DNA of 64,000 bases from the NCBI GenBank assembly GCA_000004985.1, contig GG738863.1. One strand, 5' to 3'. The notes below the pieces were generated by a model. The model had not been told where the DNA came from, made no database searches, and saw only the letters and a list, made by a program, of their open reading frames with translations. The stretch is from Naegleria gruberi (lineage: Eukaryota). The translations under genes and the position numbers were made by a program. Below, piece after piece: positions 6,654 through 38,745 of the stretch. Within the stretch, counting starts at the first letter, position 1. Each line of letters starts with the position of its first letter.

Positions 6654-9600
6654 TTATCTTGAATTAAGAGAACATGAGTAATATTTTCTGTGTGCTTTAC
6701 CAACAAGTAGTGATAATAGACTTTGAATTTCATGCCAATTATCAATGATTTTAGGATTATAGGATTTAACTAAAATAATATTTAAAGCCTTAATAAAGCC
6801 TCTATGATTTAAATTGAGAATTGAATTGTGTCTATCCCAAAAAGTGTCATGGGGACGAAGCTTACAGGATGCTCCTGTAAGATTCGTGAATTTAGTTAAG
6901 AAATATCTTCTAAAACATTCGGTTTCTTCACAGTAGTATATGAAATGTTCCAAATCCACTTCACATTCACAGTTATCACAATAAACTTGACGAAATTGTC
7001 TAATATGTGAGTCGGTCATGTTTCTCCAAATTGACAATTTGGTTTCAGTGTCAAATCTTTGATCCATATATTTCAAATTGATATTAGTGAGGGACTGACT
7101 TTGGTTAAAAGGTAAGTCAGATTTATCCTCAACAATATCTAAATATTCTTTTCTCTGGATATCTTTGATGTATTTTCTATAGTCAAAGATGATTGTTTTC
7201 TTATTAGTATTAATTAAAATCTTTTGGTTTTGGGATAATAGTTTGGTAATATCAATCATATTTTGTCCTTGTGCACCTTCTTTTGCTAATTTATCAACTA
7301 TAATATTCTCTGGATCTTCATGCCCTTTCACTTTAACTAGATGGATATTTAAATGTTTATCCTTAATGGTACCAAAGAATTCTTCTTGAAATCCTTGAAA
7401 GTCTCCTCTGTAACTCTTTTTTAAAACTTCAATAGCAACTTGACTATCAGTATGTACATTAGCATTGGAATGATTTGGCAGCATTTTGATTGCTGTTAAT
7501 ATAGCCATGATTTCAGCCACGTTATTGGAATATTCTTCATGAATCTTGAAGGAATATTTGAAACTTCTATTTTCTGAATTATATATATTAATTCCAAATC
7601 CCACTTGGTTTTCAATTTTTGATCCATCTGTGTGAATATTAAATGAATGACCCTCCATTTGATCCAAATTAATATCATTGTCAATATCATTACATTCCTT
7701 CAATTCGATATTATATCGTTTCATAGTTTGTAGAATACTATCAAAGATATTGCTAATTCTCTTCTTTTTACCAGCATGTTTGATCCCATCTTTAATTGCC
7801 TCTCTTACTAGAGGGTTTCTACTATTTGTTAAATATAAAATAGAGTTAATATTAATTCTTTGAATGAAATCATTACAGTTAGGAATACCCAATCCTCCAT
7901 ATTCAATAGGTAAATGGAACCAATGAGTGTGACTTCTTAAATCTAAATGAGCTCTTCTTCTAATACATTTCCTAATAGCAGTATCTATTTTATCACCTAA
8001 AGCTGCTGGTATGATATTACATCTAGATAAATGTGTGAATAAACTGATACATTTAGCATGTATCACTTTTCCAATATTTGGAATTTCCATTCTCATAATA
8101 GGCATATATTTCAGTGATAGTTGAAATTTAGCAATCTTATTCATAATGTCTTCTTTTACCATTTTATCATCCCATGGATAGTGACCAAGAACTCGTACAT
8201 TTTCTTCAAGTGGTATTTTGGTATCATTAATTTTTGGTTTCATTTTCTTAATTTTCTTAGTAGGGTTCGGTTTCTGTGTTGCAACTGATTTGGATGGATT
8301 GATCTTTAGTGATAATTTCCCAAGCCATCTATTTAGGTCTTTTAATCTTGAATTATAATTGCAATTTTTAGTCGCTGTTAAATTTAGGTCATCAGCAAAA
8401 CATAGAATTCCAATATCATCTGCTTTGAGTTTTTTAGGTTTTACGGGAATATCCCACTTGTCTATACATTTATCAATAATTAATTGAGTAATACAATCGT
8501 AAACCAGGGGAGCTAATGGACAACCTTGTGGGATGCCCCTGGTTTTGTGAATGGGTCTAGATAATGAGTTTCCTATCTCTAAGCTTAATAAATGGTCTTT
8601 GTACGAGTTGAGGATAAATTCAATTAATTCATTAGGGAATTTACAATGATGTAGAGCTAATTCAATTACCTTCAGTTCAACAGAATCATAAGCACCTTCT
8701 ATATCCAAGTTTACAATTAATAGAGGGTCTTTTTCTCTATTGGCTTTATGTGCTAAAGCTGATAATACTATTCCATGATTCATTGTACTTCTGTGTGAGA
8801 TAAATGCTTGTTGTCTAATATTTATGTTCCTACTAGCCCATCTTCTTAATTTAAAAGCAATAACATTGAATAATAATCGGTAATAAATTGGTAAGATGGT
8901 TATTGGGCGAATATCATTCAATTTCTTAACTTCTCGCTTAGGTACTAATTTTACCCACCCTTGTTTCCATTCTAAGGGAATATTTCTTGTTTGGAGACAT
9001 TCATTAAATTTTTCTACTAACAGCTTTAAATTATCATCTGATAGTTTCTTAATAATATTAAATGATATAAAATCTAGTCCAGGTGTGTTAGATTTCATTC
9101 TTTGAATAGCTTTCTTAACAGAATTCATAGTTATTTTGATTTTTGATGGGCCCTTTGAAATAGTAGATGGGGCACAATTAAATTGAATTGAATCGGTTTT
9201 AGATTGGAACTTTTGCTCAAAGTAGTCAATCAATTCCTCTTCTTCAAAATCAACTTGTTTCCAGTTAATTGACTTCTCCTTAATATGTCTATCAAATTGA
9301 TATATTAATGATGAATCGTATCGATTAAATGATTCAGAAATCTTTCTCTTAATTTCCTCTGCACATCTATGATAAAGGTCTTTAATTTCAGATCTAACTC
9401 TTTCTATTTGGTCTGTATCATTGTTCTCTGAATTAATGAGATCATTCAATTCCTCTTCTTTCGACTTAATCTCTTGTCTTAATTCTGATTCATTAGTTTT
9501 AATTCGAATTCTATCATTCTTTCTTAAATTTTCAATAATAAAGGATTTAATTTTGTTATCTAATTCATTAAAGCTATCAGGAACTTCTCTGTTAATAGAT

Positions 9601-10397
9601 TCAATAAATTTTTGAATCTTTGTTGGACTAATATATGGTCTCCATGTATCATTAGTCTCTAATTCAATATCAATATAGAATGGTTGATGATCATTCTTAG
9701 TTATTGATGGTAAAATCTTCTTATTTCTAATAATAATATTATTTGAAACGAATATATGATCAGGGTGAGTTTTAGTTGTACCATCTCTTGTTTTTCTAAT
9801 GTAGGTGTATTCATCAGGAGCTATAGATTCATAAAAATTGAAAGTATCAAAGAATTCACACCACATTCTATCTCTCATTGAAGTGGGATTAATGGTATTT
9901 ATATTCGGATCTCCCGATATAATGAAATATTCTCCTTGATGTGCACTTATATACTCTATCATGGTACTTAGTATTTTATCATCATATGATTCACTCTCCT
10001 CATCATTTCTAACACTTATATAGACTGTAAAGATATTAATTGGTTTTCCTCTTGTTTCAAACTTTGTTAATTGAAGTAATCCTGGAATAAGATTGGTATT
10101 ACATAACAATCTTTTCCTTCGGTTGTTAATAAAATGTAGCAATGCAGTGCCTTTACAAGCTTTTCTGGTTCCCATTAATGAATTAAAAAAGAAATGTCCT
10201 CTTCCTGATTCGAAAGCCCTTTGTTGATCTTCTAATTTGTTAATGTGAGTTTCGGTAATGCTTATAATTTGAATATTATGTTGGTGACAAATTCCCTTAA
10301 TAGCATGAGTTAGGATCTCTTTAGTTTCTGTTTTAATAAGACCATTCACATTAAAACATCCCACTCGGAAATTGCATTTTGGATTAATCATTGGCAT
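6654..10397 (-). CDS. LINE ORF2 polyprotein: N-terminal apurinic-like endonuclease, reverse transcriptase, RNase H and a C-terminal Cys/His motif
   Basis: 1247 aa. Endonuclease/exonuclease/phosphatase-like N-terminus (CFNVNGL...SITETHI...GDPNIN). RT motifs PITILPIYYRLLFNVIA, LDIEGAYDSV, GIPQGCPLAPLVY and LCFADDLNL. RNase H motifs NIHTDGSK...AEIMAILTAI...HTDSQVAI. Then CDNCECEVDLEHFIYYCEETECF. No internal stops. Confidence 0.85.
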   Translation of the reverse strand: MPMINPKCNFRVGCFNVNGLIKTETKEILTHAIKGICHQHNIQIISITETHINKLEDQQRAFESGRGHFFFNSLMGTRKACKGTALLHFINNRRKRLLCNTNLIPGLLQLTKFETRGKPINIFTVYISVRNDEESESYDDKILSTMIEYISAHQGEYFIISGDPNINTINPTSMRDRMWCEFFDTFNFYESIAPDEYTYIRKTRDGTTKTHPDHIFVSNNIIIRNKKILPSITKNDHQPFYIDIELETNDTWRPYISPTKIQKFIESINREVPDSFNELDNKIKSFIIENLRKNDRIRIKTNESELRQEIKSKEEELNDLINSENNDTDQIERVRSEIKDLYHRCAEEIKRKISESFNRYDSSLIYQFDRHIKEKSINWKQVDFEEEELIDYFEQKFQSKTDSIQFNCAPSTISKGPSKIKITMNSVKKAIQRMKSNTPGLDFISFNIIKKLSDDNLKLLVEKFNECLQTRNIPLEWKQGWVKLVPKREVKKLNDIRPITILPIYYRLLFNVIAFKLRRWASRNINIRQQAFISHRSTMNHGIVLSALAHKANREKDPLLIVNLDIEGAYDSVELKVIELALHHCKFPNELIEFILNSYKDHLLSLEIGNSLSRPIHKTRGIPQGCPLAPLVYDCITQLIIDKCIDKWDIPVKPKKLKADDIGILCFADDLNLTATKNCNYNSRLKDLNRWLGKLSLKINPSKSVATQKPNPTKKIKKMKPKINDTKIPLEENVRVLGHYPWDDKMVKEDIMNKIAKFQLSLKYMPIMRMEIPNIGKVIHAKCISLFTHLSRCNIIPAALGDKIDTAIRKCIRRRAHLDLRSHTHWFHLPIEYGGLGIPNCNDFIQRININSILYLTNSRNPLVREAIKDGIKHAGKKKRISNIFDSILQTMKRYNIELKECNDIDNDINLDQMEGHSFNIHTDGSKIENQVGFGINIYNSENRSFKYSFKIHEEYSNNVAEIMAILTAIKMLPNHSNANVHTDSQVAIEVLKKSYRGDFQGFQEEFFGTIKDKHLNIHLVKVKGHEDPENIIVDKLAKEGAQGQNMIDITKLLSQNQKILINTNKKTIIFDYRKYIKDIQRKEYLDIVEDKSDLPFNQSQSLTNINLKYMDQRFDTETKLSIWRNMTDSHIRQFRQVYCDNCECEVDLEHFIYYCEETECFRRYFLTKFTNLTGASCKLRPHDTFWDRHNSILNLNHRGFIKALNIILVKSYNPKIIDNWHEIQSLLSLLVGKAHRKYYSCSLNSR

Positions 10398-11367
10398 GAT
10401 ATTTTAGTTGTGGTTCATCCTCATCATCTATATCATCATGCTTTCTTCTTACTTGAGGATTTGGAGCCATTCTAACATCTCTAATTTCTTCATCTTCTAC
10501 CATCTTCTCTAACATGTTATCAATATGATTTCCAATCAGTTCTAATTCTTGGTTATCAATAATATTATTTGGTTGGTTTTGTAACCATATTGGAATTTTA
10601 TCCATTAAATTTTTGAATTCTTTTTCTGTGTTTTTAACAACTACATTAATTTCATTGAATTGTTCTTGTAATTTAGTATAATTCATTTCCAATAAATCAA
10701 GTCTTTCCATAATTCTATCTAATTTGCTGTCATTATTAATTGAGGTACTATCAGGTTGTTTGTTCACTTTATATTTCTTTGTAAGATATTCAGCAGTGGA
10801 TACAAATTGAATAAAGTGCATGATACCAATAGGATCTCTCTTTGGAAAAACCACTTTAGTAAATCTATAAACTTCATCGTCAGATTGTAATCTAATATTA
10901 ATAATATAATTATTATTTAATAGTTTACTAATTTTAATATTTTCTTTTTTAATAGTAATATTAGATCTTTGTTCAATTGTTTTAATTGATTCAGACACTT
11001 GTTCCTCTGTGAAGTTCTTACTCATAACAATAGATACATCTAAGGAGCTTTCATTAATAATTTCTTCAATTTTACGATAGGTTTCAAACTTATTTTGAAT
11101 TAAATAATTAATTTTAGTGTTTGTTAGGAGAGAAACTCTCAACTTGTATTGTGAAATAGATTTGTTTGAGTCATAGTTTAAACTAACATTAATTTGATCA
11201 ATATCAATATCATTAGAATTAATAATTAATCTATATTTTTCCATAAATTCTTTTTGATTCTTGGTATAGTATTTTACAGCATGTTCAGTAGCATTAAAAT
11301 TCATAGGGGAAGCAAAGTATTTAGCAGGTGCTTCCTTAATAACTTCTTGATTAGTAAGTATTTTCAT
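10384..11367 (-). CDS. LINE ORF1 (coiled-coil nucleic-acid chaperone-type ORF1p)
   Basis: 327 aa with a true ATG at 11367-11365 and an in-frame TAA about 40 nt upstream. The C-terminal part has a predicted coiled coil (LDRIMERLDLLEMNYTKLQEQFNEINVVVKNTEKEF). It terminates inside the ORF2 start (...HAND*). Confidence 0.65.
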   Translation of the reverse strand: MKILTNQEVIKEAPAKYFASPMNFNATEHAVKYYTKNQKEFMEKYRLIINSNDIDIDQINVSLNYDSNKSISQYKLRVSLLTNTKINYLIQNKFETYRKIEEIINESSLDVSIVMSKNFTEEQVSESIKTIEQRSNITIKKENIKISKLLNNNYIINIRLQSDDEVYRFTKVVFPKRDPIGIMHFIQFVSTAEYLTKKYKVNKQPDSTSINNDSKLDRIMERLDLLEMNYTKLQEQFNEINVVVKNTEKEFKNLMDKIPIWLQNQPNNIIDNQELELIGNHIDNMLEKMVEDEEIRDVRMAPNPQVRRKHDDIDDEDEPQLKYHAND

Positions 11368-11422
11368 AGCTTTGATAAAGTTATCTCTATTATTAATAGC
11401 TAATTGAAATATAAATTCTTAT

Positions 11423-11848
11423 TTACAGGGATGTAATAATAATCACATAGATGTTTACCTTACTGAGGAAAAATTCAGCAATAGTCTCAGTAATGTTGGT
11501 TTGACAATAGATAGAAATGCTAGTGCTATAATCAATAGTCTTTTGTCTCTTGTGTGACATTTTAAGATTTTCTTTTTGTTTAAGATTTCCATTCCGTTTG
11601 TTTTCGTTTAAATTAGATTCGGAAATATTTTTAGCAACCACCTTAATTTTCGGAATTTTCTCTTCACTTGCTGGAGCTTTGGCAACTTCCACATAGGTAG
11701 GTTTAATTACTTCCGAGTTATTTTTAGTCTCATTGGGGGGCTTTATCATCGGAAGCATGTTTTCAATAATAGACTTATACGTATTGATCATTACAGTCTG
11801 CCGCTTTATTAGGTCGACAAGCGAAACAGGTTGGAGGTGTAGACTCAT
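11423..11848 (-). CDS. Uncertain upstream ORF (about 142 aa from the first ATG) at the 5' end of the LINE. It may be an ORF0 or N-terminal extension of the element, or it may be spurious.
   Basis: The track start at 11866 is TTG; the first ATG is at 11848-11846. The sequence is basic and K/N-rich (KRNGNLKQKENLKMSHKRQK). It would fuse in phase to ORF1 if a 64-nt GTAAGG...TTAG segment (11404..11467) were removed. Confidence 0.2.
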   Translation of the reverse strand: MSLHLQPVSLVDLIKRQTVMINTYKSIIENMLPMIKPPNETKNNSEVIKPTYVEVAKAPASEEKIPKIKVVAKNISESNLNENKRNGNLKQKENLKMSHKRQKTIDYSTSISIYCQTNITETIAEFFLSKVNIYVIIITSL

Positions 11849-11876
11849 TTTTTTTGAACTCAACAAGATTAAAAAA

Positions 11877-12983
11877 ATGCCTCCACCAAGCCCTCCACCC
11901 TCTCAACCCATCAATATTTATTCATCATCCTCATCTAATACACCTACTACTCATGGATTATCGACAACAATTCAAATATCAAAATCGTATTCACCTCCGA
12001 GATATTTTATGAATAGAGTGATCAGTCCTACAACACCCAATATAAATAATAATAATACTTCGGGAAGTGGATTAACGTTCAATCCTTCATTTATGAATCC
12101 TCCGATAATTGATGAAAATCAAAATGAATTTTTGGAATTAATTGAAGCTGAAACCTATGTTGATATTGAAAGATTAAGAGATATGTCTAGACATGGCATT
12201 CCTGATGATTTGAGAGCTTCAGTGTGGAAATATCTTCTTGGTGTTAACCCAGGTGACAAGGCAGAACAAATGAAAAGAGAACATATTTATTTTCAATCTG
12301 TGAAACAACAACAATTACAAAATAATTCTTCATTGGGATTATTCTACTACTCAAAGAGACAAAATATTATTTTATCAGTGGTGCAACAATCACTAAATCA
12401 GTCAAAAATCAAACACTACACCATTGAAGAGTTATTATATCTTTTGAGGCCTTTTGAATCTGTTTATATGAGCGACCCAATACAACCAAATGATGGAAAG
12501 GATTTGGAAAAGAATATTCACGATATGTATAGATGTTTTGAAGTTTTCCTTCAGAAGAATTATTTCAAAGAAAGTCTTTCCTATCAAGTTGCCAAATTGA
12601 TTACTCTTTTCAAATGTACACAACCAGACTTGTATCAATATTTTGTCAATGAAGAAGTAGAACCAAATGAATGGTGCCTTCCATGGATAAAATACTTGTT
12701 ATCGAAACAATTACCTTTGGATTGTGTTAGAAGACTTTGGGATACCTATTTTTCCACAAACGATTTTGATTTACATATTTACGTTTGTCTGGCAATATTA
12801 CAATACTACAATGAAACTCTTATGGAATTGGAATATAGTGAAATCAAATACTTTTTGAATAACATTTATACTATTGATAAGTCGACAGAAGATGGAGAAA
12901 ATAGTTTGATAAGAATTATTCCACACATTCTTAAACAAGCATATAATTTTAGAGCTTATGTGAAATCAAGGCAGTTAATTTAA
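11877..12983 (+). CDS. TBC-domain Rab GTPase-activating protein
   Basis: The real ATG is at 11877 (MPPPSPPPSQ...); the tracked start at 11733 is not ATG. The TBC signature IPDDLRASVWKYLLGV (arginine finger) is followed by a typical TBC helical core through YxQ-like regions. Single exon. Confidence 0.75.
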   Translation: MPPPSPPPSQPINIYSSSSSNTPTTHGLSTTIQISKSYSPPRYFMNRVISPTTPNINNNNTSGSGLTFNPSFMNPPIIDENQNEFLELIEAETYVDIERLRDMSRHGIPDDLRASVWKYLLGVNPGDKAEQMKREHIYFQSVKQQQLQNNSSLGLFYYSKRQNIILSVVQQSLNQSKIKHYTIEELLYLLRPFESVYMSDPIQPNDGKDLEKNIHDMYRCFEVFLQKNYFKESLSYQVAKLITLFKCTQPDLYQYFVNEEVEPNEWCLPWIKYLLSKQLPLDCVRRLWDTYFSTNDFDLHIYVCLAILQYYNETLMELEYSEIKYFLNNIYTIDKSTEDGENSLIRIIPHILKQAYNFRAYVKSRQLI

Positions 12984-16674: not shown

Positions 16675-17997
16675 ATGTTGGTTAAAAATAATATTTCGGA
16701 TGAAACATCAGATGAAAAGTATTTAAATTCAATGAGGAATGTGCTTGAACTAGTACTATCAAATAATTCAATCAAAACAATTTCTGCCAGTTTCAAGAAG
16801 GTGTGGTATCAATTACTTTTAAAATCGACTAGTGACCATGAAGTTTGTGGACTCTACAAAATTTTGTGTTGGATTTTAACGTACACAAAATCAAATCAAC
16901 AACTTGCTGAATTCCACAAATCTTTGATTGCTGACTTTCACCCAGATTTTTATAATACCACCTCTCGATATGTTAAACAAATAGGTTCTGATAGGTGGAG
17001 GAGCTTTAATGATGACCAATATGAAGTAATACTCATGTTGGATGGTAAAGTACCAAGTCAAACCTCCAATGTAAAATTGAAACAAACACCAATTAAAAGT
17101 GAGTCAAATAAGGCAAAGGAGGAACCCCCAAAATCTCAACAGGATCCATCTAAGGTAAAGAATGAAAAAGTGTCATCAAATTACACAAATGACACACCTC
17201 AACCATCTCACACAAATAGAATGCCAAGCCTCAAAGCAGCACTTGCTCAAAGTTCAACTGTAAAACCAGAAAAAACAGCAGCTCCCTCTAAATCTCAACC
17301 ATCTAAAGTGGAAAATTTAAAACAAGAAAAGATGATACCTCCAAAAACAAGTATTCCACAAGTTAAACCTGAAAAAACAGTTCAAAAAGAAAGTATTCCA
17401 CAAGTCAAACCTGAAAAAGTAGCACAATCTAAACAAGTTTCTAAACCAAACAATATAGAAACTAATACTTCAAAAATCCCACTCAAGTCTGAACGGCTTA
17501 ATAATTCTACAATGTCTTCACCATCAAAACCTAAAATCAAACCTGCAACTCCAAGGAAAGTATTGACCACCCCTCCAATTCAAAACACTCAACCAATACC
17601 CACCAATAGAACTCCTGTTAAGCAAACTTCAGTGACAAAGCCTCGAATGATGTCGGCCTTTTCACAAGATGAAGAATCTCCAACTACCAAAAAGCGAGAA
17701 AGAAAATGGAGAAAGGAACACAATGAAAAATTAATGGATTACCTTTCTAACCGTCCTCATTTGGCCAATAATTCCTTCTTTGAAAGTGACAAATTAATGC
17801 AACAGTTCATAGAATCGTATGACTTTGCTGTTCCTTTATCAATACCAACCTTAGCAAAGAGAAAATACAAATACGATCAATTCTTCAACGCTATCATGCA
17901 AGCTACTCAAACAGTTATCAAAGCTGAAAAGGCAAACACTAACAAGAGAAAAGATCCACCTTCAAGCTCCTCCACTGCAAAAAGACACAAAATGTAG
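16675..17997 (+). CDS. Hypothetical protein with a globular N-terminal domain and a long K/P/S/T-rich tail
   Basis: 440 aa with ATG at 16675. There is an alternative two-exon model with upstream exon 16474..16624 (MQTITTPAIRSEPRTT...) joined via an 87-nt GTAAGG...CAG intron to 16712; both models are in frame. No recognisable domain. The tail carries a KRERKWRKEHNEK basic motif. Confidence 0.4.
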   Translation: MLVKNNISDETSDEKYLNSMRNVLELVLSNNSIKTISASFKKVWYQLLLKSTSDHEVCGLYKILCWILTYTKSNQQLAEFHKSLIADFHPDFYNTTSRYVKQIGSDRWRSFNDDQYEVILMLDGKVPSQTSNVKLKQTPIKSESNKAKEEPPKSQQDPSKVKNEKVSSNYTNDTPQPSHTNRMPSLKAALAQSSTVKPEKTAAPSKSQPSKVENLKQEKMIPPKTSIPQVKPEKTVQKESIPQVKPEKVAQSKQVSKPNNIETNTSKIPLKSERLNNSTMSSPSKPKIKPATPRKVLTTPPIQNTQPIPTNRTPVKQTSVTKPRMMSAFSQDEESPTTKKRERKWRKEHNEKLMDYLSNRPHLANNSFFESDKLMQQFIESYDFAVPLSIPTLAKRKYKYDQFFNAIMQATQTVIKAEKANTNKRKDPPSSSSTAKRHKM

Positions 17998-18050
17998 ATT
18001 TTCAGATAATCATTGAACAGTGAAAAGTTAGTGGATTTATTTTGGACATA

Positions 18051-18800
18051 TTAAACAAGGTTGGCAGGAAGTGGAATATTAGGAATCACAATATTATCAT
18101 CTTGTTGATTAGGGAAGACAGTATCGTGCGAAATTGGAGTTGGAGAAACAGCTTGAGGAACGAATACTCTTGGGATACGTGGGACATTATCATCGATAGG
18201 AGTTGGTTGAGGAAGTACAATTTGAGCATACTCAACTGGATCAATTTTTGGTTGTTCATACCGTATGGGTTCTTCATAAGCAGGTGCAAGAGGCTCCTGT
18301 TTATCATAAACATTGGTTTCTTGTTGCTTTGGATTGTCTTGCTTGAGATTAATTTGATTAGTTGTTTCTACGTGGACTTGGATTGGATCAACTTGTTCTA
18401 TATCATCATAGTCATTGTGATGATATTGAACTGCAGTGTCCTCGTTCTTTGCCTCTTGCTTAGCATTTGTTGATGCTGTAGTTGTTGCTACTTGGGTATT
18501 AGTGGCATTGTAATTATAATTATAATTTTGGATTGGTTGTTGATTGGTGGCAGTGTGGTGATGAGGAGTAGTTTCTGATTCGCTAGCTGGTTTTCCACAA
18601 TCAAGTTTTGAAATGGCATCCTTAATATTCTTAATAAATCTAATTGCCAAATATCCGATTTCACGAATAGTTTCAAAGAAAGTGTTTACCATCAATGGAA
18701 TTGTAATTCTTTGTCTTTTAGATCTGAGTTTGTGTAAATAGAAAGATCCAAAGAATGCCAAAATTAGACCTGCAGCAATGCATCCAATAATAATTCCAAT
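18051..18800 (-). CDS. C-terminal part of a single-pass type I membrane protein (TM helix plus Q/N/P/Y-rich cytoplasmic tail). The 5' part is lost in an assembly gap.
   Basis: Extending the tracked ORF 18051..18761 upstream gives ...GDIIGIIIGCIAAGLILAFFGSFYLHKLRSKRQR, a transmembrane helix followed by a basic stop-transfer sequence. The frame runs straight into the N run at 18801. Confidence 0.4.
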   Translation of the reverse strand: MGIIIGCIAAGLILAFFGSFYLHKLRSKRQRITIPLMVNTFFETIREIGYLAIRFIKNIKDAISKLDCGKPASESETTPHHHTATNQQPIQNYNYNYNATNTQVATTTASTNAKQEAKNEDTAVQYHHNDYDDIEQVDPIQVHVETTNQINLKQDNPKQQETNVYDKQEPLAPAYEEPIRYEQPKIDPVEYAQIVLPQPTPIDDNVPRIPRVFVPQAVSPTPISHDTVFPNQQDDNIVIPNIPLPANLV

Positions 18801-18977
18801 GATATCACCTTNNNNNNNNNNNNNNNNNNNNNNNNNNNNNNNNNNNNNNNNNNNNNNNNNNNNNNNNNNNNNNNNNNNNNNNNNNNNNNNNNNNNNNNNN
18901 NNNNNNNNNNNNNNNNNNNNNNNNNNNNNNNNNNNNNNNNNNNNNNNNNNNNNNNNNNNNNNNNNNNNNNNNNNNNN
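18801..18977. other. Assembly gap (177 N)
   Basis: A contiguous run of n characters. The ORFs with X residues that span it in the track are artefacts. Confidence 0.99.
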
Positions 18978-19091
18978 ACCCAGGCATCATTCACTGTCGA
19001 TTGTAGAGTTTCATTGCATTTGAAATGTGAGAAGAGAGAACATCATTAGTTATCACTGTTGCAAAAATTCTGTGTCTTGAGAACAATGAAT

Positions 19092-20119
19092 TTATTGTGA
19101 AAGTTCATTAAGGTAGGGAAAGACATACTTGTGGAATGGCTGATGTCTTTTGAGGTAATCTAATGGAGTTTCTCCATTGATATCTTTTGCTTGAACGTCG
19201 ACATTGTATTTGAGGAGGAGAGGAATGAGACACCATCTTGTGGCTATCATGCAGATTTGATGGAGAGGAGTGATTCCTTCATTGTCAGCAATATGAATCA
19301 AGAGAGGCTGTTTTTCAATAATGGTAACAATTGAATCACTGGTAATTCTTTGATTTTCAATTGCAAAATGGAGTGCAGTGGCTGATAGAATCTTTGTTGA
19401 TTTGACTTTTAGCGATTTTTCCAACAAGCTCTCAGGAGGTAAATAATTCAGAATGTATGAGAATGCAACACCATCCATACCATCACACATGATATTTACC
19501 AAGTTTGTTTGGAAATGTTGATCAGCATAGAAACCGTATTGGAAAGGTTTGAATAATTCAACCTTCTCCTCAGGAGAGCAGTGTTCGCAAAGGAAGGCCA
19601 TTAATCTACAATTCTTATTGGTATTAATAATGGTGGCCAGGTTTGTTTTCAATTTTGGAATATCTAATTTACACAGATTTTGTTTTAATAAACGTGACCA
19701 GTGATCCAACAATACTTGTCCAAAATCAGGTCCCAAACATGAGAAAATTTGTACTACTTGGTTTGAGATATCCCACCCACTATGAATTAATAGAGCTACA
19801 TTTTTCTCTGATAAATTTTGGGTACTACTCAAGAAAAGCTCACCATTATGATAAGTATTACAGAGATAGATAAAATATTGTAATATAGCAAACTTTCTAG
19901 GAGTAGAAACAAAATTGGCCAATTGGTCATCGATATTTAAAACTACATGAAATAAGATATCGCTAAGAATAAATACTTACTGGCTGGAGGATATCTGGTG
20001 AGGACAAAAGTGGCAATATCTTTCATAGTTTCAATAGAGCATTGGCCTTCATTGGAAACAATACTGAATAATCCTTTTGTTGAATACCATGGATTGTTAG
20101 ACTTTTGGATATCTGACAT
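19092..20119 (-). CDS. Ankyrin-repeat protein (two exons)
   Basis: The C-terminal ankyrin repeats read ...NEGITPLHQICMIATRWCLIPLLLKYNVDVQAKDINGETPLDYLK. Both tracked ORFs (19092..19922 and 19943..20245) start at TTG. Proposed model: ATG 20119-20117 (MSDIQKSNNPWY...); exon 19981..20119; 38-nt intron 19943..19980 (GTAAGT...GTAG); exon 19092..19942. Phase is consistent: A + TT gives I. Confidence 0.45.
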
Positions 20120-20192
20120 GTTGATTGAAGAAATATAAATGCTACGCTCTGATGTTGGGATATCTTGCACTTTTTCTGAATTTACATAGATA

Positions 20193-21578
20193 TTATGATT
20201 TGGAAAGGTTGCAAACAATATAGGCAATCTCTGTTGTGTCCACAATCACCTTAAGGAATATGGTTTTCACACTTGAAAGCTTTGCCAACATTGCAAAAGT
20301 ATTACCAATCACTGAAAGTCTTTCGAAATAGGTAACTGTAACACTCTCCAAACTTTCCAGAGTTTCTTCGTGAACATAATTAATAAAGAACATCATATTT
20401 CTGCCTCCCTCATACATATCATAACATTCCATTTCTAATCTTTCAATCTTGTTCAATTTGGAAACAATTTCAGCTAAGAGGAGTGGGCTACTCATATCTG
20501 AAACGCAAATTTTGAGGGCTTTTACATAATCATTCATATTATCATTTGTCATTTCAGCCATTTCAAGTTCTTCATCTGTATCCTCGTCCATATTCTGAAA
20601 AGTTTGGCACACTTCATAGTAGGATAGTGCCGAGTGTATCTCTCTTCTTGTAGTGCTTTGGGTTCCTTCCAATGTTTTCCATGTACTTACTGGTGAAGAT
20701 TCCTTTTTGAATTTAGGTTTGAAATTCCCTACTGTTGTATACAACTCTTCAACAAGATTCTTCTCAATGGCCTCTAGTTCATCTAAATTCATTGAATTTA
20801 AATCAATTTTATCATCAACAGATGTTGTATCATTTTGAGTATCTGAATCATCTTGCATTTCTCTAAATTCAGGATAGATTGGATCCTTAAGTGGTTTCTG
20901 TGTGTCTGGTGTTGGAAGGTTGAAGAATTTATAATCAGTACTCTTTTCATCCAAATACTTATTCTGCATTTCTAATAAATATTTAATGACCTTCACTCTA
21001 TACGAATATAATATAGGAGAAATAGAGTTGAGGAAAACTGTAAGATCAAGAGTTTCATCCTTCATTCTTTTAAACATTGATTGTTCTAAATGATTTCTTA
21101 CCGATTGTGAAACCAATCGATGTTTGATGTATGTGAAAAACCATGGATCCCTTACGGAGATGGTTTTTCTAATAGCACCTCTCTTATCATAATATGTAGC
21201 TCCACCATAAACATTAGAGTAGGTTGGAATGAAGGAAATAATTTCAATCTTCACATCCAGTGGCAAAACTGTCAATGTTGATGCCGTAATATTTTGATCA
21301 TCAGCATTATTATTGACAGAAGAATGATTTTGTAAAAGATCCTTCAATATCCACAATCTTGCTACCTTCAAACAATCTCTGTACGGAGAGAATTTAGTTT
21401 GAATATCAAGCTTATCCTCCTGAACAACATTTTGCAAGGAATTCTTCATGGTGGCCATGCAATTTCTTTGGATGAGCTTTTCCATCAATTCTCTATTCTC
21501 CTGAATACCTAGCAAATTATGCCTTGGTGTGCCTGGTCCTCCTGTTGACTTTCTAGCTGTCTGTCTTGTTCTTGCCAT
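20193..21578 (-). CDS. Hypothetical protein with a histone H3 tail-like N-terminus ([14 protein letters not shown]...) and a possible F-box-like motif
   Basis: The tracked start at 21587 is TTG; the true ATG is at 21578-21576. That gives about 461 aa beginning [24 protein letters not shown], which is 12 of 13 identities with H3 residues 1-13 (K4 replaced by R). Residues around 100-120 ([18 protein letters not shown]) resemble an F-box. The rest is helical with acidic patches. Single exon. Confidence 0.6.
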   Translation of the reverse strand: [461 protein letters not shown]

Positions 21579-21874
21579 TTTTTTCAAAGTGAATAATCAG
21601 CAACAAGGTAATGATGACTACATTTTTTGATATTAATTTTTTGTAGTGTTACGATTTTTTTCGTTTCCTCCAATACCTTGAAATTCTTACCTTGAAACAA
21701 TATATTAAATAATATTGTTAATATTTAATTGAAGAAAAGAAAACCTTACAAGAAGAATCATCATTTTGAACTTAAATTTAGAAGAGTGATGCTCCTTCCA
21801 TTTATCTTCTATTGGTAAGTCATTAAAAGAAAAAGCCTCCATTAGCAGAATCCTCACAAAATTCACATTAAAAA

Positions 21875-24439
21875 ATGTACAATACCCAACAACAATCTTC
21901 CCCGCAACAACCAAGACTTTCATCAAAGGTTGAATTGCACATTTCATGCAGAGGATTGAAGAATGTGAGTTGTTTATGTGAAGATTTGCAATTTAATAAT
22001 TATTCGTTAATTTGTGATGATTTTGTTGATTTTATTAAATGATCATCTAATGATGATTTTATTAAATAAGATGGATTTACTTTCAAAGTCAGATCCAAAG
22101 GTTTTAGTTTATGCAGGATTTCCTCCGAATAATCCACAATACGTAAGTAAATAATTAGAAATTTCTAGAAATATTATTGGAAAGGCTTGGAAATTATTGG
22201 GCGAAACTGAATGCATCAAGGATAATTTAAATCCAAACTTTTCAACTACTTTTACAGTTGAATATTGTTTTGAAGAACTTCAACACTTGAAATTCTGTGT
22301 CTATGATATTGATAATAATACTGCCACATTATCGGATGATGATTTTATTGGAGAGACAACTACAACACTAGGTGAGTATTGAAATCTTAAGAGTTTAGAT
22401 ACCAATTTATTGAATTAAAATACAGGTGAAATTTGTGGAGCTAAAGGACAAAAATTAATTAAACATCTCTATGCCAAGGGTTCAAAGGTTTCAAGAGGTA
22501 CCATCATTGTAACTGCCGAGGAAGTTAATTCAAATGCCACTGATGATGTGGAAATTGCCTTGGCAGGTGTTACACTTCCAAAGGTATGTGTTAAATAATT
22601 TCACAGAAACTTATTCTACAATTTATTATTTAATCTTACAATAGATGGATTTTTTTGGAAAGGCAGATCCAGTACGTAATTAGTTATTAGCAGATTTATC
22701 TAACATTTGTCAAGTTTTATGTTGTACAAAAAGCATCTGAAAGTGGTCAATTCCTTTCAGTTTATCAATCTGAAACCATCATGAATAATTTAAATCCAAT
22801 TTGGAAGCCAATGCGAATTTCTTGTGCCAAATTGTGTAATGGAGATTATCATAGAAGTTTGAAAATTTCTGTATACGATTGGAATAAGCACTCTGCTCCA
22901 GATTTTATCGGAGAGGTTGAAACTAATTTGGATGCTCTTCTTAAGGCTAGTGTTTCTCTTAAACTACAAAATCCAGCAAAGAAAAAGGGAAATCATGGCG
23001 ATCTTATTGTCAAGTCCTCCAAGATTACTAAAAATCCAACCTTCTTGGAATTTTTGGCAGGTGGAATGAAAATGAACATGTTGGTTGCAGTTGACTTTAC
23101 TGCTTCAAATGGTCAACCAGAATTACCTCAATCTTTGCACTACAATAGACAAGGACAAATGAACCAATACGAACAAGCTATTAGATCTGTTGGACAAATT
23201 ATTTCTGACTATGATAGCGACAAATTGTTCCCATCTTTTGGTTATGGAGGATATTTACCAAATGGTATTACATCACACTGCTTTGCTTTGAATGGTAATC
23301 CACAAAAACCAGAATGTTTTCAAGTTGACGGAATTCTTCAAAGTTATAGACAAGCACTGTATACCGTAAAACTTTCAGGACCAACTCATTTTGCTCAAAT
23401 TATCAAAACAGCCTGTCAATATGCTTCTGTTCCAATAAGTCAATCAAACCAAGAATATTTTGTCTTGCTCATTTGTACTGATGGTATGATTAATGATATG
23501 CAGGAAACTATTGATCAAATAATTGAAGGATCAGGACTCCCACTTTCAATTATTATTGTTGGTGTTGGTGCAGCTGATTTCAGCTCTATGGAAACACTGG
23601 ATGGCGATAATGCTGCCCTCAGATCTGGCCGTACTGGAAGAACAGCTCTTCGTGATATTGTCCAATTTGTACCATTTAACAAATTTGCATCAATGCCATT
23701 TACTGCTCTCAGTAAGGAAGTTCTTGCTGAAATTCCAACCCAAGTAACTCAATTCATGAAAATGAAAAATTTAATGCCAAACCAAAGAGTAGTTATTCAG
23801 GAATATGTTCCACCTGAACCAAGCACTCCATCCACCACAACTACTCAAATGTATCCAAGCAATGATCCACCAAGAGAAAGAAGTATGTCAGAAAGTTTCA
23901 ATCCAAATACTTCCAATTCCAATCTTAATTCCATTCCAAACCAAGTTCCACAACAAGGTATTCCACAACAACAAGTTCCACCAACTTATGGAGTTCCTCC
24001 TCAACAAGGTGGTTATCCACAACAGGGTTATCCTCAACAACCAACTGGTCAACCTCAACAATATCCTCAACAACAAGGTGGTTATCCAATGCAACCTCAA
24101 CAATTTGGTGGATATCCTCAACAGCCTGTTGGTGGACAACCTCAACAATTTGGTCAACAAGTTCCACCTCAACAATATGGCCAAATCCCTCCTCAACAAT
24201 ACAGTCAAGTCCCTCCACAACAAGGTTACCCACAACAAGGTGGATATCCACAACAGGGTTATCCTCAACAACCAACTGGTCAACCTCAACAATTTGGTCA
24301 ACAAGTCCCTCCACAACAATATGGCCAAATCCCTCCTCAACAATACAGTCAAGTCCCTCCACAACAAGGCTATCCTCAACAAGTCCCACGTAATCCTCAA
24401 CAACCTGAAAATCCAACCATCCCTCAATACAAAATTTAA
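21875..24439 (+). CDS. Copine (two C2 domains plus a vWA domain) with a long P/Q/G/Y-rich C-terminal tail. Six exons.
   Basis: Exons: 21875..21964 (MYNTQQQ...[12 protein letters not shown]), 22071..22142 ([14 protein letters not shown]...), 22185..22371 ([20 protein letters not shown]...FCVYDIDN...), 22426..22583 (...[10 protein letters not shown]...), 22645..22671 (MDFFGKADP) and 22715..24439 ([13 protein letters not shown]...NNLNPIWKP...; vWA region [10 protein letters not shown]...LICTDG...[10 protein letters not shown]). Introns are 42-106 nt with GTGAGT/GTAAGT/GTATGT/GTACGT donors, and all junctions are in phase. Each junction matches the conserved copine order (SKSDP, SWAELGRTE-like, NNLNPxW). 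Confidence 0.8.
24137..24424 (+). repeat. Tandem duplication of a 144-nt (48-aa) coding unit in the copine tail, embedded in shorter GYPQQ-type repeats
   Basis: Copy 1 is 24137..24280 and copy 2 starts at 24281. Both encode [34 protein letters not shown](G)... with only a few substitutions. The antisense ORFs 23888..24427 and 23925..24416 are by-products of this repeat. Confidence 0.7.
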
Positions 24440-35688: not shown

Positions 35689-38600
35689 ATGTTAAAACAA
35701 TTATTAGGAGAAATTGATGGCATTGGAAAGTCATCGATGGATGGTTTACATTCGCTGTTCGAGTCTCAAATGAATGATCTTACCATGAGAGCACAAAATT
35801 ATAAGGAACAAATAACAAATACATCATCATACTTTTATGCTACTCCATCATTTAAAGTGGGAGTGAAAGGACAATTAAATAGTAACAAGAAACCATTCCC
35901 GTTCTCCTTCAATTCTGGCAGTGCAAAGAAGACACCACTCAAGAGTCCTCCACATCTTCATAAAACTCCAATCGGATCACCTCATTCATTTAGAAAACAA
36001 ACACCTCTTGGTACAAGGAATTTTGATCAGGAACTTAATATTCAACCACACAATGTAACAATATCACAATCACCTCTCTTCAAATTTAAATCACCAATAG
36101 CAATGACCTCTGGTGGAAATAAGAAGAAACGAAAGTCTTCTTCCGTATCCAAGAGAAATATGTTATCGCCACCACCAATGATCGATTCAAATGTTGAATT
36201 GCCAAAGGAAATTGAATTATATGCACCAATACCTCCTCTTGAATTTGATAAGGATTTGGGTATTGATAAAGATGATGAAATGGACACTGATTCAATTAAG
36301 CCAATAGAGCCAGTCTTGATGAGTAAGAAGAATTCAGTGATGAGTGTAGATATGGAACTTGGTGTTGTTACTGCCTTACCTCAACCAGAAAGCAAGCAAG
36401 AAATGATTTCATCGCCACCACCTCCACAAACAATTACACTCCTCCAACAATTCCAAGAACCACAACAATTATCATACGAGAGACCACTTCAACCAGTTGT
36501 CATTCCACCATCAACAATATTCCAACTTCCAAAGGTCAAAGAAGAACCAATAAGTGATGAAGAAGAAATTGTTGTGAAAAAGAATAGACAACCTAAAAGA
36601 AAACCTAAACTTATTGCAGTGCAACAACCAAACAATAACACTACTAATGCTAATGTCAGTGTTTCAACAGTTGCTCAAGAACCACCAAAGGAACCTGAAG
36701 TCATTGTTATTGATGATGCTAAATCTGATGTGACAGAACAGTTATCTTGTCTTTTGATTTCTGAAGCATTGAAAGAAAATGAAAAGAATGAACAAGCTCT
36801 TGAACAATCAAATATTGTTCCTGTTCATTCATTCATTGTAAAACAAGAAATTGTTGATTCACCTGAAGTGGTCAATAAGACCTTCAATAGAACTTGTTTG
36901 GATGAAATGAATATTTCTATGATTCAACCAATCGAAGAAGATAGAAAGCAAACTGAATTCTCATTCCTCTCCAAAACTAAATTATTCCAAGACGCACATG
37001 ATGAAAGTGATGATAGTATCTTGTGCTTTAGTGCATCAGATGATGATCTTTTTGAAGATGACAAGGAAGAACATGAGAACGATGTTTGTGTCAAAATCAA
37101 TTTTGCCCCTCCTCCAGTTGTTAATATTTTCGAAAGACAACAATCAGTCCAAATTCCAAATCCGTTCAGTAACTTGAAAAAGACCAATAGTGCAGAGGCA
37201 GTTAAGGTCACATCCCTTCAAGAGAAGATTAAATCCTTAAAATCAGAGCCATGCATTCCTTCCATTCACTCAATGATGCAAAAGGCAGATGCAGATAGAC
37301 CATCTCTTGAACTTTCTGAACCGCCATGCACTCCAACTAGAACTCCTTCCATCTCAGGAGCCATTGAGAAACTTGGACAATTGTCGATTCACAATAAGAT
37401 TGAAGTAATGTTCTCACCACCAGAGGTTCAACTTTCTCCTCCACCTTTCGACTCTATTCCAGATTTCTCCTCACCAAAGTATTCTTCACTTCAACACATT
37501 AAATCTGAGGTTGCCACACCAAGGCAAGTGCAATCCCAAGATGATAACAATGCCCTCACACCAAAGAATGATATGCAATTGAGTACACCTCCAACAACCT
37601 CTAATGTCAAAGAGCCACCAACAATATCGCAACATGGCAAGTACAAACCATTTACTCCTAAATTTATGGAACCAAGACCTAATCCTACTGCTTCTTCTGA
37701 AATTCCATACGAAGATCCATTTGCTACTTTGAGGAGAGACTCTATCGATATCATTGATGTTGATGAGAATGAACACAAGAGAAAGTTCACCAATAAGGTT
37801 TCAACAGAGAGTAATGATCAAAAGAGACTGAAACTCAGCGAAACGAACCGTATTTCAATTTCTTCAGTGTCTTCCTGTTCCTCAATTTCCTCATTCCACA
37901 GTAATGCCAGTATTGGAGAGTTAAGCAATCCAGGAGTAGGCAATGTTGTGTCTAACATCTTTACTGGTGTCAAGTCATTTGTTTTCAAAGTTGCACAAAA
38001 CAAGAATAAGAGCAGTGTTGGTGCCTCAAAGAAGGCAATCAGCAGTTTGAAACTTGCAGAAGCTGCCAAAAAGAAGGAAGAAGATAAGAAGAATGCCAAG
38101 AAGGAAAAGTTGGAAAAGCAATTAGCTTTACAAAAGAAAAAGAAAGAACAAGAAGATAAATTAAAGGAAGATGCCAAGAAACAAACTAAACTTGTAAAGA
38201 CAAATAGTTCCAATAATACTTCCCAAAAGTCCATCGTAGAAGGATTGGCTCTAGCATCTGGTTCACGTTCCAGTAATATTTCAACTTGTTCCAATAGTAC
38301 CAATTCTCAAACCAATAAGAAGATAATAGGTCCACAAATAGGTCCAATGAACAAACCACAACCACCTAAGAAACAAACAACCCTCACAACAAAGCCACTT
38401 ACTGCTGTTCCTGAACCTAGAGTTTCCTCATACGATTTGAGTGATGAATATGACAGCTCAGAGGACGATGAAGTTGCTAAGAGAAGAAGACAACATAAGA
38501 AGATTCCATCTTGGGCTCAAGGTGAAACCCTCAAGAAGAATATCATTCGTACAACTAAGATTGACCCAGACAGAATATTTGGATCTGTTAGAACCTGTAA

Positions 38601-38745
38601 TCTTGAAGATATTTTCAAGGGAACTACTAACCAAGTTATGATTAATAGATTTAGACAACGTACCTCATCCTCAAATTGGACTGCTGATCACTTTACTCTT
38701 GAAGAGGAAGAAGAATACAGAGAAGAAATGGGATTCACCCTTTAA
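35689..38745 (+). CDS. INCENP: Inner centromere protein (INCENP) homologue with a C-terminal IN-box
   Basis: 1018 aa with ATG at 35689. Large disordered S/T/P-rich N-terminal two thirds. A K/E-rich single alpha-helix region (KKEEDKKNAKKEKLEKQLALQKKKKEQEDKLKEDAKKQ). The C-terminal IN-box reads ...KKIPSWAQGETLKKNIIRTTKIDPDRIFGSVRTCNLEDIFKG..., matching the animal IN-box consensus IPxWA ... LF ... L.LEDIFK. Confidence 0.65.
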   Translation: MLKQLLGEIDGIGKSSMDGLHSLFESQMNDLTMRAQNYKEQITNTSSYFYATPSFKVGVKGQLNSNKKPFPFSFNSGSAKKTPLKSPPHLHKTPIGSPHSFRKQTPLGTRNFDQELNIQPHNVTISQSPLFKFKSPIAMTSGGNKKKRKSSSVSKRNMLSPPPMIDSNVELPKEIELYAPIPPLEFDKDLGIDKDDEMDTDSIKPIEPVLMSKKNSVMSVDMELGVVTALPQPESKQEMISSPPPPQTITLLQQFQEPQQLSYERPLQPVVIPPSTIFQLPKVKEEPISDEEEIVVKKNRQPKRKPKLIAVQQPNNNTTNANVSVSTVAQEPPKEPEVIVIDDAKSDVTEQLSCLLISEALKENEKNEQALEQSNIVPVHSFIVKQEIVDSPEVVNKTFNRTCLDEMNISMIQPIEEDRKQTEFSFLSKTKLFQDAHDESDDSILCFSASDDDLFEDDKEEHENDVCVKINFAPPPVVNIFERQQSVQIPNPFSNLKKTNSAEAVKVTSLQEKIKSLKSEPCIPSIHSMMQKADADRPSLELSEPPCTPTRTPSISGAIEKLGQLSIHNKIEVMFSPPEVQLSPPPFDSIPDFSSPKYSSLQHIKSEVATPRQVQSQDDNNALTPKNDMQLSTPPTTSNVKEPPTISQHGKYKPFTPKFMEPRPNPTASSEIPYEDPFATLRRDSIDIIDVDENEHKRKFTNKVSTESNDQKRLKLSETNRISISSVSSCSSISSFHSNASIGELSNPGVGNVVSNIFTGVKSFVFKVAQNKNKSSVGASKKAISSLKLAEAAKKKEEDKKNAKKEKLEKQLALQKKKKEQEDKLKEDAKKQTKLVKTNSSNNTSQKSIVEGLALASGSRSSNISTCSNSTNSQTNKKIIGPQIGPMNKPQPPKKQTTLTTKPLTAVPEPRVSSYDLSDEYDSSEDDEVAKRRRQHKKIPSWAQGETLKKNIIRTTKIDPDRIFGSVRTCNLEDIFKGTTNQVMINRFRQRTSSSNWTADHFTLEEEEEYREEMGFTL

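Follow-up and report, generated by a model that had tools for sequence, protein, structure and literature searches.

An N-terminal copy of the histone H3 tail on a non-histone protein family of Naegleria and Willaertia

Results

A 64,000-nucleotide (nt) stretch of Naegleria gruberi DNA (assembly GCA_000004985.1, contig GG738863.1), called the window throughout, was analysed with respect to a minus-strand gene whose product begins with a near-exact copy of the N-terminal tail of histone H3. After the initiator Met, 12 of the 13 leading residues were equal to H3 residues 1–13, with Lys4 replaced by Arg. The first eight of these residues recurred in relatives from three other species of Naegleria and Willaertia, which marks the H3 copy as a selected feature, and it probably plugs into H3-tail-reading machinery.

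The H3-like N-terminus

The first codons of the open reading frame (ORF) were ATG GCA AGA ACA AGA CAG ACA GCT AGA AAG TCA ACA GGA GGA. The encoded N-terminus retained the STGG of H3 and, together with the relatives P0020 and P0017, had T3, R8, K9, S10, and T11 exactly as in H3. In the BLASTP comparison with a hand-typed human H3 sequence, residues 1–22 were aligned with 16/22 identities and one gap, giving a pairwise E value of 9e-7, and no alignment to H3 was returned past residue 22. Calculated with the amino-acid frequencies of neighbouring N. gruberi proteins, the chance of a match of at least 12/13 at the fixed N-terminal position was about 6e-15 per protein, or about 9e-11 per 16,000 proteins. 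The H3 match is far beyond chance. A six-frame scan of the window detected no second H3-tail-like stretch, and the Pfam scan showed no Histone domain (PF00125) at E ≤ 1 in the protein. The ORF read without a break from the tail into the family domain described below. The original prediction of a near-exact H3 tail copy, coding and placed at the true N-terminus of a non-histone protein, was borne out by these results. Residues 15–45 were also considered as a possible degenerate vestige of the alpha-N helix or histone fold of H3 (PGT... against PGT...YQKSTELLIRKL); BLASTP gave no support and this candidate was dropped.

The stretch between the upstream in-frame TGA (21599..21597) and the ATG at 21578 has no AG dinucleotide, which leaves no way for a coding exon further upstream to be spliced in frame onto the tail. 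The closest relative (ENA sequence L003) has the same ATG context as the window gene, TTTGAAAA(G)AAAATGG. A minimal upstream ORF (uORF; ATG TAG) lies at 21618–21623, 45 nt ahead of the start codon. The same upstream ATG opens a 9-codon uORF (stop counted) in the environmental contig L001, where it ends at the in-frame TGA.

As assembled, the ORF (ATG at 21578, stop at 20195..20193) encodes 461 amino acids (aa). The length of about 460 aa given in the original prediction turned out to be an artefact of a one-base frameshift at 20216, the product being about 815 aa with C-terminal ankyrin repeats. The European Nucleotide Archive (ENA) metagenome contig L001 was 98.7% identical to window 22933..18978 and 99.6% identical over a second segment, 18811..17919. 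It holds an intact 815-aa frame, which runs on to a GTAAGT equivalent to window position 19980; a predicted intron (19980..19943, ending in TAG) is then followed by the ORF 19942..19092. With the extra G at 20216 removed and the intron spliced, the window gene gave an 815-aa product that is collinear end to end with its relatives, and both window exons were open apart from the extra base. The 38-nt intron is short, yet plausible as predicted. The apparent introns of the neighbouring copine gene are about 56–62 nt long and have the same type of donor.

The product was not present in a collection of 15 billion proteins, in which the sole 90%-cluster match was a 544-aa protein encoded on contig L001. 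Six neighbouring ORFs were exact annotated N. gruberi proteins, for example XP_002678096 and INCENP XP_002678101, and the reference protein set is apparently without a model for the window gene. A 166-N assembly gap (18812–18977) lies 1.2 kb downstream of the extra G. The 471-nt spacer to the copine gene showed 3.6% mismatches and 22 indel columns against L001 and was far more diverged than any coding part.

The family in Naegleria and Willaertia

HMMER was run exhaustively against 1.84 billion representative proteins and recovered ten relatives with 27–55% identity. By cluster look-up, named relatives fell only in N. gruberi (XP_002677515 and XP_002671977), N. lovaniensis (XP_044546301, XP_044541524, and XP_044543131), N. 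fowleri (XP_044558212), and Willaertia magna (KAL9652365 and a second gene), the rest being metagenome sequences. The family has so far been seen only in Naegleria and Willaertia (Vahlkampfiidae) and a few unassigned metagenome sequences. A family hidden Markov model (HMM), built with the tails left out, matched exon 1, the shifted piece, and exon 2 with E values of 2.4e-121, 1.4e-15, and 1.6e-105, respectively; its input sequences included the L001-based reconstruction, which is 97% identical to the window product. All collinear family motifs were present in order in the reconstructed product. Word-index homologue searches returned next to nothing, and with the tails trimmed only the metagenome copy was found; in one untrimmed search, H3 sequences with the same tail words had probably crowded out other matches. 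JGI metagenome contigs and IMG/VR viral contigs were scanned for members or a viral origin, and no relatives were confirmed. A search of a literature library on the family locus tags, the peptide ARTRQTARK, and histone mimicry with Naegleria or F-box gave nothing relevant.

The H3-like start, predicted originally for one gene, is kept by relatives in N. fowleri, N. lovaniensis, N. gruberi, and W. magna. Eight full-length members begin in this way, and a ninth, the tandem W. magna copy, begins M/VRT...PR..KQL. The longest copy was observed in W. magna P0017, which matched H3 residues 1–23 exactly, all later H3 residues up to 23 being retained; its likeness to H3 faded gradually past residue 23 with no sharp boundary. 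Other starts were MARTRQTAQ in W. magna P0023, M/VRTIPRISNKQLKS in the tandem copy just named, which neighbours P0023, MARTRGGSRVG..RRPR in an N. lovaniensis paralogue, MSRTKQARSTSS in a metagenome copy, and MSRTKQ in the metagenome member P0015. P0010, an N. lovaniensis member, retained the GKAPR of H3. P0012 and P0018, two paralogues without the tail, carry another N-terminal extension, one that starts with KRKRK/KKRK clusters (NNKRKRKSS and SSKKRKYP). A KIX domain was considered for this extension and dropped, there being no Pfam match even at E 10.

The N. fowleri gene has no introns and is syntenic with the N. lovaniensis gene; neither shares synteny with the window gene. The tail is not an annotation chimera, since no intron interrupts the N. 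fowleri gene and the window copy reads from tail to family domain in a single ORF. In each of the W. magna tandem genes (L006, JBEGDK010000051, 4823–7773 and 8001–11068), exon 1 holds nothing but the ATG, and the tail begins directly past the acceptor of the GTAAGT intron that comes next. The NCBI model of the second W. magna gene (693 aa) seems to miss the C-terminal QYLIYL/ankyrin part of the same 881-aa open frame. On N. lovaniensis PYSW02000030 (L002) a segment with the family gene and a portion of the neighbour upstream occurs twice in tandem (6853–9848 and 9878–12851), one of the copies carrying a short N run (four X residues in translation). This tandem repeat is probably an assembly duplication.

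Constraint on the tail

Mean pairwise identity among the eight tail-bearing members was 0.71 for residues 1–8 and 0.17, 0.10, and 0.05 for residues 9–13, 14–22, and 23–38, respectively. Within codons 2–9, synonymous codons differed at 3–6 conserved residues per member pair. Because the conserved residues use different synonymous codons, it is the peptide that has been preserved, and recent DNA copying does not account for the identity. This pattern indicates that the octapeptide ARTRQTAR is under selection across species and paralogues, with the adjoining linker free to vary. The scattered later H3 residues are as expected if the tails descend from a full H3-like one of 20 residues or more, in which ARTRQTAR alone has stayed under lasting constraint.

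R2 was found in every tail-bearing member, and the mature N-terminus of the window protein reads A1-R2-T3. The replacement of methylatable K4, which the original prediction had pointed out, recurred as K4R in all five copies from named Naegleria species; K was seen only in W. magna P0017 and the metagenome member P0015. K9 was retained in 4/8 and S10 in 3/8 of the tail-bearing members, and the basic stretch of residues 14–27 was not conserved in the Naegleria members. Enzymes acting on K9 or S10 had been among the proposed partners, and the family data did not uphold this, as constraint falls on residues 1–8 and only about half of the members have K9/S10. Constraint on residues 1–8 points to binders of the unmodified extreme N-terminus over HP1 or Aurora-type K9/S10 biology.

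Body of the protein

Beyond the tail, the family motifs follow one another in the order Y.. motif, L..LPxDxKxEIIxFIPT, DPWW..KHRLIS...LE...R.S.EGLDLS, an acidic linker, an alternating strand/helix stretch, QY.IYL.N.Y, and a C-terminal ankyrin unit (IEKQPLL...TPLH...RW.LIP...D..G.TP.DY). The ankyrin call was above Pfam thresholds in window exon 2, and the homologous C-termini of relatives also matched ANK models. The leucine-rich repeat (LRR)-like region at aa 354–456 had no Pfam match.

The F-box-like motif of the original prediction was present (21275..21216), whereas the F-box itself stayed below threshold and was limited to its first helix. The window protein showed no F-box hit at the Pfam threshold (PF00646/PF12937), only PRANC at E 0.76. 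Across 11 members the sub-threshold matches were PF00646 in 2/11 (best E 0.0052) and PRANC in 2/11 (best E 0.032), and the best PDB profile match was a weak one to the F-box of FBXO4 (E 0.65). Because these weak signals all land on the same motif, the label F-box-like is fair.

In the N. lovaniensis member P0010 a WGR domain (E 8e-16) is inserted past the conserved N-terminal region, which hints at nucleic-acid or chromatin association. The KRKRK/KKRK N-termini of the two tail-less paralogues hint at a nuclear or chromatin context. Foldseek matches in the PDB (CD38, flavodoxin-like, and miscellaneous helical structures) were discarded as noise, with E > 0.05 and template modelling (TM) scores of about 0.1–0.2. 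The family-core profile weakly matched KKLARLWIMHD and a downstream EGIDRSHF in PDB 9e2g chain 3Q ('MC8') at E 0.71.

Table 1. Features of the H3-tail gene in window coordinates.
Feature	Position	Strand	Evidence
Whole gene (exon 1, 38-nt intron, exon 2)	19092..21578	-	spliced model built on environmental contig L001, mapped back to window
Start codon, first ATG past in-frame TGA 21599..21597	21576..21578	-	sequence; same ATG context in L003
H3(1-13) mimic	21537..21575	-	family-wide conserved part is residues 1-8
Weaker H3-like continuation, PGTPRHNL against KAPRKQL	21513..21536	-	BLASTP alignment to residue 22
Family motif A	21336..21383	-	Y, W, D invariant in family alignments
F-box-like first-helix motif, aa 102-121	21216..21275	-	sub-threshold hits on one motif
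Second family motif (16 residues)	21102..21149	-	family alignments
Alternating strand/helix, LRR-like, aa 354-456	20211..20519	-	low-confidence AlphaFold2 secondary structure, predicted local distance difference test (pLDDT) 56-83 only over aa 350-420
Extra G, shifts frame, creates stop at 20195..20193	20216	-	comparison with environmental contig L001
Remainder of exon 1, open in shifted frame (FATFPNHNIY...TRYPPA)	19981..20215	-	family HMM E 1.4e-15
Predicted 38-nt phase-1 intron, GTAAGT...TAG	19943..19980	-	joins two ORFs in frame
Exon 2 including stop codon; QYFIYLCNTYHNGELF, IEKQPLL, C-terminal ankyrin repeats	19092..19942	-	family HMM E 1.6e-105; BLASTP to W. magna ORF E 6e-6
Ankyrin repeats	19155..19373	-	Ank_3 23.0 bits (cut-off 22.3), Ank_4 24.1 (22.7), Ank_5 E 1e-5

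Window neighbours

The copine gene (22050–24439, plus strand) is divergent from the H3-tail gene; its exons are split by apparent short introns, and its long Pro/Gln-rich C-terminal region is built from near-identical GYPQQ... repeats. A retroelement occupies 6654–11367 (minus strand) with a 1,247-aa ORF for reverse transcriptase and RNase H, and a 327-aa same-strand ORF overlaps its 5' end. Genes for INCENP (35689–38745), a HECT ubiquitin ligase (40310–44410), and an ARID-domain protein (47195–49303) lie nearby, all on the plus strand, with no evidence of a functional link to the H3-tail gene.

Discussion

With about even confidence, we read the window protein as an N-terminal H3 mimic carried by an adaptor-like, probably nuclear protein that would engage an H3-tail-binding factor. 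Removal of the initiator Met is expected for Met-Ala starts by the methionine-aminopeptidase rule, and it is predicted here, where Met is followed by Ala as in H3. The predicted free end would be A1-R2-T3-R4-Q5-T6-A7-R8, equal to H3 save for K4R, and it would dock into at least one protein with a binding site for the unmodified N-terminus of H3. Candidate partners include WDR5-type and RbAp46/48-type proteins, PHD/ADD readers of K4me0, LSD1-type or Haspin-type enzymes, and H3 importins. The pockets of WDR5, RbAp46/48, K4me0-reading PHD/ADD fingers, LSD1, and Haspin contact the residues that are constrained in the family. R4 would make its position neither methylatable nor acetylatable and could act as a fixed stand-in for unmodified K4. 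The rest of the protein would serve as an adaptor, possibly a receptor of a Skp1-cullin-F-box (SCF)-type ubiquitin ligase. Through its tail the adaptor may tether, sequester, or target the partner, or the partner may control the adaptor. The SCF role is one that we infer, because the F-box evidence is sub-threshold and limited to the first helix.

Several observations weigh against this reading. The tails of P0013, P0014, and P0015 are degenerate, and the tail is wholly absent in two members. The profile signals for an F-box are sub-threshold throughout; hhalign against a hand-typed alignment of ten F-box sequences gave a probability of 17% over 23 columns, in the first helix only. AlphaFold2 predictions were of low confidence, with a pLDDT of 48.8 for the 544-aa product (12-sequence alignment) and 62.3 for a 162-aa core. 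The other unfavourable points concern the state of the window copy and are given with that question below.

The H3 N-terminal tail is a known importin-dependent nuclear localisation signal (NLS), and the family tail might be a borrowed import signal and nothing more, which we consider unlikely. The tail-less P0012 and P0018 carry basic clusters at the N-terminus instead, suggesting that the N-terminal module supplies nuclear targeting, and the WGR domain of P0010 suggests a nuclear role. However, the constraint on residues 1–8 includes the non-basic A1, T3, Q5, T6, and A7, and a basic NLS would need neither an exact sequence nor an exact N-terminal position. Residues 14–27 of H3 carry most of the importin contacts, and this basic stretch is lost from the Naegleria members. 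The tail could also be a pseudo-substrate or switch, in which kinases, methyltransferases, or arginine methyltransferases mark T3, R2, R8, K9, or S10 and the marks control stability or binding, comparable with G9a automethylation at ARKT. The identity of T3, R8, K9, S10, and T11 with H3 in the window protein, P0020, and P0017 agrees with such marking, but the patchy retention of K9 (4/8) and S10 (3/8) does not, and K4, the most heavily used mark in the segment, is R in every Naegleria copy; we regard a switch as distinctly unlikely. A more speculative role, to which we assign a very low probability, is that of a bait or decoy for histone-targeting effectors of intracellular bacteria or giant viruses. 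Legionella, chlamydiae, and giant viruses naturally infect Naegleria and Willaertia, and some of these agents inject enzymes acting on the H3 tails of the host. In a decoy role, the fast-evolving and lineage-restricted family would present a K4-dead H3 N-terminus, exposed on its LRR-like, ankyrin, and F-box-like scaffold, and so capture or sense effectors, which would be routed to ubiquitylation or would trigger a response. In a milder version, the bait would take endogenous H3-tail readers or erasers for turnover.

A chance match, or a prediction artefact joining the first exon of H3 to an unrelated gene, has a negligible probability in our judgement. The W. magna models do start with a prediction-dependent ATG-only exon, and no other support for an artefact was found. 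Against it stand the chance of about 1e-10 per proteome, the direct reading from tail into family domain both in the window ORF and in the N. fowleri gene, which lacks introns, the gradual fading of H3 similarity past residue 23 in P0017, and the different codons used for conserved residues.

The window copy is frameshifted in the reference strain, which may reflect a sequencing error or a recent inactivation. The locus could then be a pseudogene or dying paralogue in which the tail is a relic, whatever the family does elsewhere; we think this improbable, though it deserves some weight. The extra base truncates the product at 461 aa with loss of the ankyrin part, the exact product is missing from the protein collection, and the reference annotation apparently lacks a model. 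Between the window and L001, two N. gruberi-type sequences, 9 non-synonymous differences and 1 synonymous difference were counted, which is compatible with neutrality and fits relaxed or positive selection, not strong constraint. This ratio of non-synonymous to synonymous change (dN/dS) rests on 10 differences, too few to part neutrality from positive selection, and the hypervariable 5' intergenic region is unsuitable as a neutral yardstick. The closest relative, L003 (ENA ERZ4903137 k141_1474763, 291–755), has 55% identity to the target over aa 8–90 and has lost the tail. Its diverged N-terminus at the homologous ATG reads MVQRRSSYGSKVPRNES, an in-frame TAA lies ahead of a still-recognisable LLSTLPTFIQMKILEAMPT motif, and the sequence has the appearance of a decayed copy; oddly, TVRKSTNH can be read in the untranslated frame immediately ahead of it. 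In contrast to these signs of decay, the environmental contig keeps the intact 815-aa frame and both window exons are open apart from one base. One indel was present in 2,449 coding bases, compared with 22 indel columns in the 471 bases of the 5' intergenic region, and a Sanger assembly error is plausible with an assembly gap 1.2 kb away. The function of the family and the status of the window copy are separate questions.

The family offers a natural experiment on which H3 N-terminal residues count in recognition off the nucleosome, here residues 1–8 with R tolerated or preferred at position 4. The H3-like end also offers a ready-made affinity handle for H3-tail binders in a deep-branching eukaryote. 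Should the body be a ubiquitin-ligase adaptor, it would provide the first example of such an adaptor recruiting through a built-in histone tail.

Comparison with known systems

The body resembles FBXL and PRANC proteins in having a Leu-Pro-x-Asp/Glu...Ile-Ile-x-Phe-Ile helix followed by repeats, with weak PF00646 and PF09372 matches. It differs in that neither of these matches reaches a curated threshold and in the second F-box half (VCK-x-W and LW helices), which is unrecognisable. The PRANC-type order is also reversed, the F-box-like motif lying at aa 102–121 and the ankyrin repeats at the C-terminus. Histone H3 itself shares residues 1–13 (1–23 in P0017) and the Met-Ala start, but the window protein is without the histone fold and the similarity ends at residue 22.

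G9a/GLP has an automethylation site, ARKT, and influenza NS1 ends in an ARSK tail. Both mimic the histone tail by the A-R-K-S/T context of K9 or K4 and bind readers, as may the amoeba proteins. Those motifs are internal or C-terminal and depend on lysine modification, whereas the constraint here lies on a free N-terminal octapeptide and not on K9. The SNAG motif of Snail/GFI1 binds LSD1, the RRKQ motif of FOG1/SALL4/BCL11A binds RBBP4-NuRD, and the VRTK motif of PAF15 binds the PHD of UHRF1. In these factors an extreme N-terminal peptide occupies a pocket for unmodified H3 and thereby recruits or inhibits a chromatin factor, and MSRTKQ of P0015 and M/VRT of W. magna are similar to them. They are convergent look-alikes of 4–8 residues in metazoan factors for transcription or replication, while the family described here has an apparent copied tail on an ANK/LRR-like scaffold.

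N-termini of human non-histone proteins that imitate H3 residues 1–4 after Met removal (H3 tail mimics, H3TMs; for example VRK1) engage PHD, Tudor, and NuRD modules (PMC8166343). The amoeba proteins are like the H3TMs in that the N-terminus predicted after Met removal imitates H3 and R2 is present, and they depart from them at position 4, where the H3TMs have a methylatable Lys for an aromatic cage and the window protein and the named Naegleria copies have R4 in place of K4. The H3TMs share a loose x-R-x-K pattern of about four residues among unrelated proteins, whereas 8–23 identical residues are inherited family-wide in the amoebae. Known histone mimics are thus short convergent motifs of about 4–8 residues, mostly metazoan or viral, and the present case is an apparently transplanted H3 N-terminus carried by a whole family. 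Identity to H3 covers 13 residues in the window gene and 23 in the Willaertia protein, and selection has preserved it in both genera, whose free-living and pathogenic amoebae include N. fowleri.

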